This document shows positions 11,569 through 55,970 of a stretch of DNA of 64,000 nucleotides, piece by piece. Below the pieces are notes generated by a model, which saw only the letters and a program-made list of their open reading frames with translations, was not told the origin of the DNA and did not search any database. The position numbers and the translations under genes are program-made. Source of the DNA: Spizellomyces punctatus DAOM BR117 (taxonomy: Eukaryota); assembly GCA_000182565.2 (NCBI GenBank), contig KQ257456.1, one strand, 5' to 3'. Each line of letters starts with the position of its first letter. Positions within the stretch are counted from its first letter, which is position 1.

Positions 11569-11802
11569 GTTTCACTCTCACCCGGACAGCTGAAGTACTT
11601 CGACCAACCCTTATTACACTATCATGGAAACGATGCGCACACGTTCCTTAAGGCAGGCTGTTGATGATTCAACCAGCGGAGGTGCTTTGAAAGCCACGAC
11701 GAACACGACGGGTCATATGACCTAGACACGTGACTTCTCACTTTTTTTGGCTGCTTACAGGTTCCTTGTTTCTTGACCTCCCATCAACCTTCGACAATTA
11801 CA

Positions 11803-12252
11803 ATGGCGACCACAGTGAACCCCAAAGCCTTTCCTCTTGGTGAGTCCGAAGTATGCACCTTAACTAAAGTATACGAAGAGAAACTTATCGTTATTGTTCC
11901 TCTAGCCGATGCGCAACTCACAAACAAGATTCTCGATCTTGTCCAGCAAGCATCCCACTACAAGCAGCTGAAAAAGGGTGCCAACGAAGCCACAAAAACA
12001 CTCAACCGTGGTATCTCCGAGTTCATTGTCATGACGGCTGACACTGAACCCCTCGAAATTCTTCTCCACCTCCCCTTGCTCTGTGAAGATAAGAACGTCC
12101 CATACGTCTTCGTTCCATCCAAAACCGCTCTTGGCCGTGCATGTGGTGTTTCTCGACCAGTCGTTTCCTGCTCGGTCACTACAAACGAGGGATCTGAGCT
12201 TAAACCTCAGATCCAGGCGATTAAGAACGAAATTGAGCGTCTCTTGATCTAA
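11803..12252 (+). CDS. SNU13: Snu13/15.5K, L7Ae-family kink-turn-binding protein of U4/U6 and box C/D snoRNPs; intron 11840-11905
   Basis: [44 protein letters not shown]...[29 protein letters not shown]...IERLLI. Confidence 0.98.
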
Positions 12253-12312
12253 TGTCTCGTTGCGTATTTAACGTCCTATTGCATAGTTACATAGACACAT
12301 CATATTGCCCTT

Positions 12313-12440
12313 TGCCATGATGGTGTCATCCGGGAAATGCTCGTGGTTGCCGGGCAGCTTTTAGTCTTGGATAGCATCCTGAGCGTTAATGTACGTAGTT
12401 TCTAGCAATCATCTTCTCTCATGATCCTTAGGTGAAGAGG
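12313..12440 (+). promoter_or_regulatory. Two predicted box C/D-type kink-turns in the SNU13 3' UTR
   Basis: Both motifs have a C-stem, a 3-nt CAU bulge, tandem G.A/A.G pairs, a U.U pair and an NC stem (12313-12385 and 12415-12440). AATAAA follows at 12451. Confidence 0.6.
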
Positions 12441-12657
12441 TTGTATTTACAATAAAGGAAAGACTGAAGCGAAATGTTTCCAATAATTGCTTTGCTGATT
12501 TACGACGTTGTTGTTGATGGCGATCGTGCTTTGATAATCAGCTCTTCATAAACGAGCTCACGTGGACAAGCCAGTTTCGTAAGTTGCCAGAACGGCGCGA
12601 CCTTGTTGCTTTGGCCTTGCACCACGCACGCAACCGTTTGCCGGCTGAGAAGAGGAT

Positions 12658-15190
12658 ATGCATGCGTCGGTGGTAGAATCCATAGTAGCAGACGCGCACG
12701 TTGAGGTCCTGATTCCTGCAACGGATTCAACCGATGCAGAGGACATCTTGAAAGCCCCAGCCAGGGACACAGTGTTTTACGGTATGGTTGCAGTACATGC
12801 CTCCGGCTTGTCCCTCTTTTAGCACAGCTGACGTGGCTCAGCGCTCTCATAATATAAATATGCAGACGAGACTCTCCACTGCTATGTCCTATTCAAACCT
12901 TCTCAGGCGCCTAGTGCCTCGAAGGTAACTGCAGCGATGCTCACAGACATCGCCAGTCGCGGTTTGGATCTGCATGTAGTTGTCAGTATAGGCGACATTG
13001 ATGAAGCAGACTCTACGATCTCGGCCTTCTTGCCTGCTACCCCCAAAGCGGCTCCTCCCGCCCCACCGCCAGCTGCCCACCATTTGGGCGCGTTTCCACA
13101 TAGAAACCGTTCAGCAACCACCGGCCCTCCCGTCCCATTAAAAGGATCTCCAGCTCCTAATTCTTCTAATTCTGCTGGCTACTTAGCGAGCCCAGCACTA
13201 AAGAGGAGGACTACATCTTTGAAGTCTGGTCAGATCTCATTAGGGCCGCTGGAATCGCAACCTTTAAAGAGGTCGCCTTTGTCCTCAGCAGTTACACCTA
13301 CAACAGAAGCAAAAGATGAGGAGATTCTTTACTCTTTCGTGTATAACGCGGTGAATGGGGAACAAGAGCCGATTGTCTTACCGGAGCAGCGATGTTGTCT
13401 CTTTCCGCTACGACTTCCGATAGGTACCGCGCGACATTATTGGCTAGCATTTTGAGAGCTGTTCTGATGTTCAATATGTTTCGATTTGGCACCAGCAATC
13501 CTAAAAGCCAGATCAAAAGATATTGGATATAGTATAATCGTTAGAATTAGTTTGATATCCAAATCAACACAGCAGTCGCCACCCAGAATGCGAGACGCTG
13601 TCCTATGCGACCCCGAAGACTTCGATGCGCCAAATTTGCTGGCAGGTCTAGCAAATGGTGAGTCCGATTTCATATTTCATTTGGCTCTGGCCAGCCTAAT
13701 GAAGCCACGTATAGACACTTATTTTAATCCGGAGGGAATACCGGTACATCGTTTACCGAATCACCCCAAGCGACCTTCATTAACACCAGCAACGCCATTC
13801 CCACGTGTGATACAAAAATGCATCCCTGTTCAACCAATACTTGATATAACGATTAATATCGTTGACGCCGGCCTTGATAGTATGTTGATGTCACTGGCGC
13901 TAGAAAATAATGTTGGCGAGGATAGTGAATTTTGCATCGAGTCTCTGAATGTGAATATGACAAATGCTATCATTTCGCCTGTTGATGAGACTTCAATCAG
14001 GAGCGAACCGGTATGTTTGTCGTCATGGGCAATTCCATTGACTTTTCTTTTCTTAATGCTGGCCTCAACTTGTGTCTTTCCAGCTTAAAACACAGGATGA
14101 GCTCCACCTTCTCTACAATGTTGCATTACTTGAGGATGCTTGTAAGGAAACACCTGTAGAGAGCACCACAAGTCCACCCGGAAGTGCCATGACCTCTCGA
14201 ATGGCATCTTTCGCGTCATTAGGGACGGTCAAGTCCATTGGAGCCGTTATAACGCCAAGAATCAAGCGGCTACTTTCGATATCAATCAAGGGGACGAGCT
14301 CGCTCGCTGGCTCCCGCGGACAGGTTATCGGAGCTAAATGGTTCACCCAGCTTCTTTTTGGAGGTGATTCTGAGAGCAAAACGCTGTTGGACGTGGTGCC
14401 TTTATACGGAAGGAAGAATGCTATGCCGAAAGAAATCCGGATTTTGAATGAAAAAGAAGGAGACGGATTGCAACTCTCATTTTCCAGTGAGTTTAACGTG
14501 GGTTTTTTCCGATTATGTGTATCCTCAACAATGCCGTCTCTCTTTTTCTGATTGAAAACAGTTGCATCACAAGTATATCTCCGCCACATCTTCACCGTTC
14601 AGGCATTCTTTGTCAACCGCTCCACAAAGACGAGAAATTTGAACCTAATCATACCGACGAAAGCGACTCCTAGTGATACATCCGCCCCGTCCCTTACTCG
14701 GTTAGTAAAGAATAGCATGATTCAACAAGTTATTATTAAAATAGCTAACTTATAACTGTAAATGTCGACAATAGTAGTCATGACAGTGGAATCAATCTGC
14801 ATATGGAAGAGGAAGGTGCGTGCTGCAAAATATGCCCGATATCCGTAACCGACACTGATATGTTCCATCCAAAGAGTTTTTGAGACGCTACCTGGAAATG
14901 GAAAAGCGCGAAGCCTCGCTCGTATGCTTAGAGCATAGTATTCAGCTAAGGTACGTGGACATGGATACGGTTTTCGACGTGAACAGCCTGTCGCATCAGT
15001 GCTAATAAGCTGCTTGGTCATTCGAAGCGCACTCCATCCGAACACGTGTCAAACAGTCAATCTGCATTTTGTCGCTATTAAAGGATTAGTTCACACTATT
15101 GAAGATATACAGCTGATTGATAGAGACAGCGGGGGTGTTATGCATTTGCGAAATGTGTTGGAAATCCACGTCCTGAACCCAAATACATAG
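12658..15190 (+). CDS. TRS65: TRAPPII complex subunit Trs65/TRAPPC14-like (multi-exon)
   Basis: ATG at 12658 (MHASVVES...VEVLIP...RDTVFY|DETLHCYVLF, intron 12782-12865). C-terminal LHPNTCQTVNLHFVAIKGLVHTIEDIQLID is typical of the Trs65 C-terminal domain. Confidence 0.65.
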
Positions 15191-53821: not shown

Positions 53822-55970
53822 CACCTTCCATTCGCTGTTATGTTGGGTATCAAAGAGGAAAACTTGCTAGACGTTGACGGCCCGCGTACGATGCGAGTGG
53901 CAAGCCGACTCGCAAAAGAGGTTCTGAGTGTTTGTTCTATTATCCAGCCGTATGAAGAAAGACGGGTTGGGGGTGCAAAAAGTCAAAAAAAATGACAAAG
54001 ATGCTGTGCTTTGAGTCCGGAGCAAGCGGCGGAACAAGCCAAGTATGAAACTTGTAGCAAAACGGTCACGCCCTCGGGTTGAACCAAAAGTGTTCCCTAA
54101 AAGGTAAAAATGAGAACCAAAAGGCTTGAAATAGCAACAAGAACACATTTTATTACCAATACCTTTTTGACGTCGTTTTATTTCCTGCTGGTAAAACGCT
54201 CGTTATCGTTTTGTCGTCCTTCCCTTCAACTTGCTTCCGGTCGATGGAACCTGGGGTCAGGCTTTTTGTTTGCCTTGTCGTCGTTTTGTTTCATAGACCT
54301 CGTTTTACATTTACACAATTGTTGAAGGGGATTTATTACTAAGCCATCCTTCCTATCGCGTGACCTGTGTTGCCATGGCAGCTATTTTGCATAAAATGAG
54401 ATTCTCTTTTTCTTTTCCTTGTATTATTCCAGGGCCATCGCACACAATCTAAAAGGTACGTTGCACTTTCAACTCTATAGCTTGAGCCCCCTTCGTGAAG
54501 GGGGGTGACTCGGTTTGATGAGCAAAACCTCACAACACTGAAAATCTCGGACGAGGGGGGACAGAACGTCCTTCCTCCATGAGCGACCATAACTTCCTCT
54601 GAATATCGCATCGTGTACTCGACTTGAATTCCATTCAGAGTCGTAGCCTCTCAACTGACCTGTCTTTTTGTTTTCCTCTAGGTACACACACTGTAACCGG
54701 ACAAGGAGAGCCTGAACAAGCGAACGAGAAATGCCCGACCGCTTCTTCAGCTTAACTTGAGACCGGGCATATTACATGTGCATGTCTGGAGAGTATCACA
54801 GTGATTATATTGGTATCGTAACCGTTTTTTCGGAATGACGATTCAAAAACCCTACAACACTCTAATTTTTATATGAGTGGTACTCTCCTTGATGGGCGTC
54901 CAAGTGGGGTCATGCACTCTGTAGAATGCTCAGACCATCTGACTCTCACGCCCGTGCTTCAAGAAAGTCGTTGATGGATGTGACAGTCGTGGTTGGGTGC
55001 CTTGCAGAGTGTGCCGGTTGAGATGCCATTGAAGCACTTGTTTCAATTCTGTCGGCCCGGGGACGCTACGCTCGACCTGTTCATTTACAAACAAGAGGTA
55101 TGTCTCAACTTGCCCAACATGAGAGAGACACGCACACCTGCAATCCGGAATGATGCTGTGAAAATATATTCTGACAACCTCTTGTATAAGTCGAGAGTCA
55201 TGGCTCGGCGATGTGCACAAATTCCGACTGACTGGATTGTTTGTGTGTGGTGTCTCTCATGTTTTCTTTGAATGACATGGCGATGAGGACTCACTCTTTG
55301 TTCAAACAGAAACACAAAACATTCACTGGAATGATAAGGACACTCAGCGGCAGGTACATAAACAAGTGGATTGGCGTAATCCATTCATCATGGAACAAGT
55401 TTGGGTTCTGCGTATTTACGATCAGAGGCTTCCAACTCTAGTCCTGCGTACCCATCAGCCAGCGTTGCGAGCTTCTGATCTCACTACAATGAATCCAAAT
55501 TTACTGCCGCGAGGCAGATGTGACGTCTCCGCCGATGAATGGATTACGCCAATTTTATTAGATTACTAAAACTCGAATGTACCATCGCCCTGTATTCGAT
55601 TTTTTAATGTTATGTCAACATGAATTCCACCTACCAGTAACAACCATAACAAGCACACATCCTATTTCAAGAACAAGGTGGAAAGGTTCTTACCTTGAGC
55701 ATCACAAGGTGTATATATCTGAATACTTTCAATTGATATTGGACATAACCACCATAATGAAACCCCACAACTAGGCTGATGTGTAATATGCAGTCGAATG
55801 CGATCGTGCACGCTCCCCAATTATCTGGTGGAGCGGTTTATGAATTGGCTTGAAGGCACCGGTATCGTTATTAAGGTTCCAGTGGCTTATGATTCTACGA
55901 CTATGAACAACGGACTGATGCGCATCCGGCACTCTGATTTACTCTGAACTGAGGTCTATGGTAATAATTT

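Follow-up and report, generated by a model that had tools for sequence, protein, structure and literature searches.

Assembly of the U4 snRNP, and of every box C/D snoRNP, is nucleated by Snu13/15.5K, and no description was found in the literature of how cells set the level of this protein. The locus considered here raises the question of whether the mRNA for Snu13 carries, in its own 3′ UTR, the kink-turn (K-turn) motif that the protein binds and, if so, whether the motif feeds back on the supply of the protein. A sequence-only reading of the window (the whole 64,000-nt stretch of DNA that was analysed, to which all coordinates refer unless another locus is named) had proposed such an element at 12313–12385 on the + strand. 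The answer depends on the identity of the gene, on the end of its transcript, on the fit of the motif to the known preference of Snu13, and on how readily a motif of this kind arises by chance.

The SNU13 gene and the 3′ end of its transcript

The interval 11803–12252 (+) holds a two-exon SNU13 (Snu13/15.5K) gene. Exon 1 (11803–11839, +), taken from the list of open reading frames and the sequence, runs from the ATG to ...FPL and the first base of an Ala codon. It is followed by a predicted 66-nt intron (11840–11905, +; GTGAGT...TAG), the splice being placed from the GTGAGT at 11840 and the continuity of the N-terminus NPKAFPLA with other loci, that is, from frame and homology and not from reads. 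The coding part of exon 2 (11906–12252, +) translates with no earlier in-frame stop down to the TAA at 12250–12252. Its 114-residue product matches Pfam PF01248 (E 2.5e-27) and, over residues 1–114, the structures of human 15.5K (PDB 1e7k, E 1.1e-56) and yeast Snu13p (PDB 1zwz, E 5.4e-54), whereas chains of NHP2 (H/ACA subunit 2) are weaker, at about 1e-22 to 1e-14, and archaeal L7Ae also scores far lower. Judged by these matches, the gene is SNU13 rather than NHP2 or L7Ae, which bears out the name given to it in the sequence-only reading. In a tree of the 114-residue protein, the window is placed weakly (support 67/75) beside a group with KAFPLA N-termini, presumably the yeast spelling of the Snu13 N-terminus, so that the host is probably a fungus. 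About 70 nt 5′ of the start codon lies a CACGTG palindrome (11727–11732), which may be a promoter element.

The extent of the mRNA was followed with raw RNA reads of the same species label, from a 3′-biased library of poly(A)-ended transcripts, of which 1,138 (1,137 of them first mates) were mapped to 11980–12700. Nearly all of the depth lies on the + strand and climbs toward the 3′ end, with a sense depth of 110–276 over 12230–12479, 4 in 12480–12504 and 0 in 12505–12604. Untemplated A-runs follow 12474 in 52 reads and 12486 in 9 reads. The sense depth and the A-runs together define a SNU13 3′ UTR of 222 nt (12253–12474, +), with a minor poly(A) site at 12486; given these poly(A) ends and the sense coverage, 12313–12385 is placed within it. 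The location claimed for the element was therefore confirmed: polyadenylated sense transcripts cross 12313–12385 and end at 12474 or 12486, and not 5′ of 12313. An AAUAAA poly(A) signal is found at 12451–12456 (+), 18 nt before the major cleavage site, and just before it lies a UA-rich stretch, UGUAUUUA (12442–12449, +), which is possibly an efficiency element for 3′-end formation. Across 11980–12700, the RNA reads show neither splice joints nor any accumulation of their ends at the borders of the kink-turns. Contigs from three further runs say nothing about the element; among them, identical ones of organism B stop at 12310, 3 nt before the first kink-turn, and resume at 12636, but such gaps are uninterpretable.

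Two kink-turns of the type preferred by Snu13

The first kink-turn (Kt1, 12313–12385, +) forms the base of a hairpin of 73 nt and is of the box C/D type. The C-stem consists of U12313·G12385, G12314–C12384 and C12315–G12383, and is followed by the bulge C12316, A12317, U12318 and by the core G12319·A12382, A12320·G12381 and then U12321·U12380. The long stem (12322–12335/12365–12379) has 13 pairs, including three G·U, and is interrupted by a bulged U12377 and a single mismatch, C12327·A12373. Above it, A12336 and A12337 are unpaired beneath an apical hairpin (12338–12356, +; 12338–12343 with 12351–12356) of six pairs, one of them G·U. Every base and pair previously listed for this structure, from the C-stem and the CAT bulge through GA·GA, the U·U and the long stem to the AA and the apical hairpin, was verified when the pairs were read from the sequence, and the hairpin was also matched by the scanner described below. 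The box C-like AUGAUGG (12317–12323, +) agrees at six of seven positions with the consensus RUGAUGA, as given in a preprint (10.64898/2026.08.03.742641), and box D is represented by CUGA (12379–12382, +), the two boxes being joined by the 3-bp terminal stem. By these features, Kt1 is classed as the box C/D flavour of K-turn, beyond a merely generic one.

A hairpin of this shape in a 3′ UTR might also be taken for a SECIS element of form 2. The pattern of that element comprises an AUGA core, a long helix II, unpaired AA and a mini-stem, and Kt1 offers AUGA at 12317–12320, AA(A) at 12335–12337 after 13–14 nt, an apical hairpin and GA at 12381–12382. However, the upstream frame is without an in-frame UGA and its stop is TAA, the core is a bulge and not an internal loop, and no loop nucleotides stand on the 3′ strand between the GA and helix I. 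The rule of bulge versus internal loop is the one that separates a K-turn from SECIS in PMC1874613. The second kink-turn is without SECIS features as well, and a SECIS element is, in our judgement, scarcely credible here.

Kt1 could also be a small box C/D-like RNA gene whose product, a compact K-turn RNA or an orphan snoRNA, is released from the SNU13 3′ UTR or competes with it, and its placement in SNU13 would then mean co-expression and not feedback. Although AUGAUGG, CUGA, the terminal stem and the length of 73 nt are snoRNA-like, C′/D′ boxes are absent (no UGA occurs within 12324–12378), and the 13-pair stem ties up the stretch 5′ of box D that would have to serve as guide. No Rfam family was matched, either by the region at E up to 10 or by the whole window at the gathering score. 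For mammalian cells, the preprint 10.64898/2026.08.03.742641 reports that compact orphan RNAs with C/D motifs, numbering in the thousands, are bound by 15.5K, and in a 3′-biased library of poly(A)-ended transcripts a small non-adenylated RNA would escape detection. The intact polyadenylated mRNA, however, spans both motifs with no accumulation of read ends at their borders, and the second motif, of 26 nt, is too short for a guide RNA. We therefore consider a small RNA gene improbable as the origin of Kt1, and turn back to K-turns that belong to the mRNA.

The second kink-turn (Kt2, 12415–12440, +), read from its sequence pairs and likewise matched by the scanner, is of the same type as Kt1 and, in its 26 nt, is similar in size to what we take to be the extent of the U4 snRNA 5′ stem-loop. 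Its C-stem, UCUCU/AGAGG, has four Watson–Crick pairs and one G·U, and the remainder comprises the bulge CAU, G·A/A·G, U·U, CC/GG and a loop UUA. The boxes are AUGAUCC and GUGA only, a weaker C/D likeness than in Kt1. From the end of Kt2 it is 10 nt to AAUAAA, with UGUAUUUA in between, and 34 nt to the cleavage site. Both motifs have the 3-nt bulge CAU, with U at position 3, and a GA directly joined to the 3′ strand of the C-stem; after the tandem GA/GA and the U·U, helix II continues with G–C, G–C in Kt1 and with C–G, C–G in Kt2. According to PMC1874613, Snu13p prefers U at bulge position 3 and a U·U adjoining the G·A pairs, and SELEX winners bind with a Kd of 35 nM. As predicted binding sites, Kt1 and Kt2 fit these published preferences at the level of sequence. 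On the + strand of the 64 kb window there are 26 copies of the hexamer CAUGAU, and Kt1 and Kt2 account for two of them.

It has then to be considered whether the two motifs are fortuitous, functionless matches in a GA- and U-rich UTR. K-turn-like matches of a generic kind are common: a loose definition gives about 100 per strand in 64 kb, and at least one generic match arose in 1,828 of 5,000 shuffles of the UTR. A strict scanner (UGAU...UGA, C-stem of at least 3 pairs, NC stem of at least 2 pairs, span of at most 120 nt) finds 14 matches in the 128 kb of both strands of the window. When the 222-nt UTR was dinucleotide-shuffled 20,000 times, at least one strict match was obtained in 362 shuffles and at least two non-overlapping ones in none. 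The strict definition was set after the element had been seen, although it agrees with the published SELEX preference. With any 3b·3n pair allowed, at least two matches appeared in 50 of 20,000 shuffles of the UTR, and under the laxest definition, with any 3b·3n pair and no bulge rule, in 81 of 5,000. Since the strict definition was chosen with the element in view, the true significance lies somewhere between the strict and the lax figures; the probability of a chance pair remains small. Further, among 5,104 sliding segments of 222 nt (64 kb, both strands), four have at least two matches, and these overlap and all represent the SNU13 3′ UTR, which is thus the sole such site in the window. CAUGAU and the SELEX-preferred U·U are common to both motifs, and the host mRNA encodes the window's one protein that binds a K-turn motif, features which also speak against chance. 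In favour of chance, it should be added that the motif was sought on account of the gene being SNU13.

The stability of the fold is unremarkable, which is again what chance would give: folding-energy z-scores of +0.25 (91 nt) and −0.83 (208 nt) lend no support to the element. The K-turn fold of Kt1 has −19.7 kcal/mol versus −23.8 for an alternative register in which GAUG is paired to CAUC, and that of Kt2 −1.2 versus −4.9 kcal/mol for an alternative fold, all in an energy model that gives no credit for sheared G·A pairs. More stable alternative folds that hide the GA bases would fit a protein-dependent switch. Work on L7Ae argues likewise that a regulator needs a K-turn which, as long as protein is absent, is less stable than another fold (PMC6298567).

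SNU13 flanks at other loci

A metagenome scan with the Snu13 protein yielded 80 SNU13 loci, kept from 548 relatives, with 61–85% protein identity. Neither synteny nor UTR similarity was found between the window and these 80 loci, and with no common neighbours or UTR sequence the window's element cannot be aligned to an ortholog. The corresponding scan of prokaryote genome contigs returned five loci, none of them useful: L7Ae homologues from archaea, and two contigs that look like contaminants. Across 68 SNU13 3′ flanks, K-turns are not enriched, with 4 forward and 4 reverse matches; in 54 distinct clusters of 3′ flanks there are 2 forward versus 1 reverse, and far-downstream controls give 2 and 0. 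When the NC stem may also begin one pair later, 5 forward matches are found versus 1 reverse in 52 clusters, and two of the five forward ones belong to the L016 clade discussed below. This lack of enrichment across 52–54 distinct flanks favours a chance origin of the window's motifs. The 5′ flanks of SNU13 loci and the opposite orientation likewise show nothing above chance. The box C core TGATG is not enriched in the 3′ flanks, being found 17 times forward and 17 times reverse, with a Markov mean of 18.6. A very relaxed search for a shared core gave 21 forward versus 11 reverse hits, noise on both strands, and was discarded.

Among fungal-looking relatives, L062 alone has a match, a compact hairpin (L062:1864–1889; AGU-CAU-GA-U-GGG...UCU-U-GA-GCU) located 19–44 nt past the SNU13 stop. 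It could be explained by chance, about 0.03 matches being expected per flank. A second CAUGAU in L062 lies 87 nt further on, without pairing flanks. At another locus, L046, a neat K-turn hairpin, CGACC-AGU-GA-U-CGCCACG-U-GA-GGUCG, was noticed at about 1300–1325, some 200 nt 5′ of a SNU13-like gene. Elsewhere in the window, far from SNU13, a 101-nt intergenic element (54788–54888, +) has a 12-bp terminal stem around AGUGAUUA on the 5′ side and AUGA on the 3′ side; this candidate gene for a small box C/D-like RNA has no Rfam match at the gathering score.

A conserved K-turn was found in a separate clade of SNU13 loci (L014, L016 = L018, L025 and L027; support 99/96), in which two conserved blocks stand in otherwise unalignable 3′ flanks. 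The 3′ flanks of L014, L016/L018 and L025 have 0–4% of 16-mers in common. Together, the two blocks make up a K-turn with the C-stem UCUC/GRGA, the bulge ARU, GA/GA, U·U and two Watson–Crick pairs, which stricter scanners that demand a pair at 4b·4n miss, the position being occupied by U·U. By alignment and a relaxed scanner, it was located at L014:1908–1972, L016:1304–1333, L018:1970–1999, L025:2002–2069 and L027:2119–2208, from 63 to 274 nt past the SNU13 stop. Its loop is shortest in L016/L018 (7 nt) and longer in L014 (41 nt), L025 (44 nt) and L027 (about 70 nt). Pair 6b–6n is C–G in three sequences of the clade and U–A in L027, a compensatory change, and pair −2 of the C-stem is U–A in L014 and U·G in the others. 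In three of the four distinct sequences (L016/L018, L025 and L027), an outer K-turn, GUU-GAU-GA-A...G-GA-GAC or -AAC, is nested around the first, so that its NC stem is the C-stem of the inner K-turn. As a control, the shared core was sought on the reverse strand of these flanks and found 0 times. L022 has a variant of the K-turn with C at bulge position 3, and L021 is without the 3′ half. Rfam gave no match at E up to 1 for five related SNU13 loci. A pattern match at 2520–2613 of L082, an archaeal MAG, was dismissed as chance, as its flanks do not pair. A further conserved block, CUCUUUCGGGGAU, is seen at varying positions in the 3′ flanks of L016, L018, L025, L021 and L022, with a variant in L027, and may be a small UUCG-type hairpin.

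The K-turn of the L016 clade, which is known from DNA alone, is on its sequence not homologous to the element of the window. It shows, nevertheless, that SNU13 3′ flanks can carry selected K-turns, again paired, and the existence of such a separate clade raises the prior for a K-turn reading of the window. An independent SNU13 clade that conserves a K-turn at a comparable place also counts against chance, and, with all of the above evidence taken together, a fortuitous origin of Kt1 and Kt2 is considered unlikely, if still a serious possibility. Conserved K-turns in another SNU13 clade further suggest that the principle may recur, and make a systematic search possible.

A possible feedback on SNU13 and its known relatives

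It is proposed that excess Snu13 binds Kt1 and Kt2 and lowers the output of its own mRNA, probably at 3′-end formation. The chances that this proposal, drawn by analogy, is right appear to us about even. Free Snu13 beyond what U4 snRNA and the box C/D snoRNAs absorb would become available for its own transcript. The surplus, acting alone or with further snoRNP or U4 partners, would bind Kt1 and Kt2, as mimics of the normal targets, on the nascent SNU13 transcript. Binding beside the poly(A) signal could then make 3′-end formation, export or stability less productive, and less Snu13 would result. Kt1 has the features of a full C/D motif, to which fibrillarin, Nop56 and Nop58 might therefore be recruited as well, in which case the repressive step could be nuclear retention or trimming to a snoRNA-ended RNA. 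The two short motifs offer a directly testable handle for mutation.

The same sequence evidence would also be expected if the K-turns bound Snu13, or a different member of the L7Ae family, in a role unconnected with feedback, such as routing the mRNA to the nucleus or nucleolus or helping the new protein to assemble with its partners, since the direction and the purpose of the effect are not fixed by sequence. However, where L7Ae-family proteins are known to bind their own mRNA, the effect is repressive (PMC5539422; PMC6298567; PMC3706390), and a site just 5′ of the poly(A) signal suits control of 3′-end formation, as described for U1A (PMC6884704). A role apart from feedback is thus regarded as quite improbable. 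A broader form of the feedback proposal is that several eukaryotic lineages independently set the supply of Snu13 by paired 3′-UTR K-turn decoys, tandem in the window and nested in the L016 clade, which would capture surplus Snu13 while the transcript is nascent and block 3′-end formation. We put this forward tentatively and hold it to be rather doubtful.

Several known systems can be set beside the SNU13 element. In its bulge ending in U and its tandem G·A, and in the U·U that marks the C/D type, it is like the terminal motif of box C/D snoRNAs and the U4 5′ stem-loop. Unlike these snoRNA and U4 targets, it is embedded in a polyadenylated mRNA and is without C′/D′ boxes, an Rfam match or an evident guide. 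It also resembles the compact K-turn/K-loop RNAs of mammals, orphan cis C/D motifs that, according to the preprint on 15.5K-bound compact RNAs (10.64898/2026.08.03.742641), bind 15.5K and regulate the host transcript. The mammalian RNAs are described there as intronic and released as small RNAs, as suppressing excision of the host intron and as occurring in many host genes, whereas the present element lies in a UTR, a term mentioned 0 times in the text available. Another cis box C/D element is the intronic snoRNA snoRD86, through which NOP56 is controlled (PMC8162545). Both elements lie in the precursor of a box C/D core protein, and the one in NOP56 senses the supply of core protein. In contrast to snoRD86, which is intronic, human and acts on the choice of splice site, the SNU13 element is exonic, in a 3′ UTR crossed by no splice joints in 11980–12700.

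Closer in protein family are the self-regulating relatives of Snu13. The mRNA for archaeal L7Ae has a K-turn in its 5′ leader to which L7Ae itself binds (PMC5539422; PMC6298567). The likeness is that the mRNA of an L7Ae-family protein bears a K-turn, and that in the absence of protein a different fold is more stable than the K-turn. The systems differ in that L7Ae is archaeal and blocks translation from a 5′ leader, whereas here the host is a eukaryote, the protein is Snu13, and two sites lie in the 3′ UTR by the poly(A) signal. The site of L30 is at the 5′ end of the transcript and a splice site, whereas here it is in the 3′ UTR. In yeast and mammals, L30 recognizes a K-turn within the pre-mRNA and mRNA that encode it (PMC3706390), and so is, like Snu13, a eukaryotic member of the L7Ae family whose transcript contains a K-turn. 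At the L30 site, the protruding base is A or C and sits in a small internal loop (PMC1874613), whereas the motifs in SNU13 have a protruding U and a clean 3-nt bulge. Neither a K-turn in SNU13 mRNA nor autoregulation by Snu13 turned up in full-text searches of the literature or in the main texts of the 2026 preprints on 15.5K-bound RNAs.

In layout, the element is closest to U1A, so surplus Snu13 is proposed to act at the nascent 3′ UTR. In the U1A mRNA, polyadenylation is blocked when two molecules of U1A occupy a bipartite element that keeps a fixed distance to the poly(A) site (PMC6884704). In both cases, an snRNP protein would face two mimics of its snRNA site in its own 3′ UTR near the poly(A) signal. 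The RNA motif differs, and U1A belongs to the RRM proteins and acts through a C-terminal motif as an inhibitor of poly(A) polymerase. Snu13 is not known to have a motif with that activity. The element may work like the U1A polyadenylation-inhibition element without being one, and, if the proposal is true, a U1A-like circuit would have arisen with another protein fold and another RNA motif. SNU13 output would then be tied to the capacity for spliceosome and snoRNP assembly, and the self-regulation of L7Ae and L30 would extend to a hub of the eukaryotic spliceosome and snoRNPs, at a 3′ UTR beside the poly(A) signal. What is known is thus the principle of self-regulation in relatives of Snu13; what is new is the protein, the position in the 3′ UTR and the paired layout.
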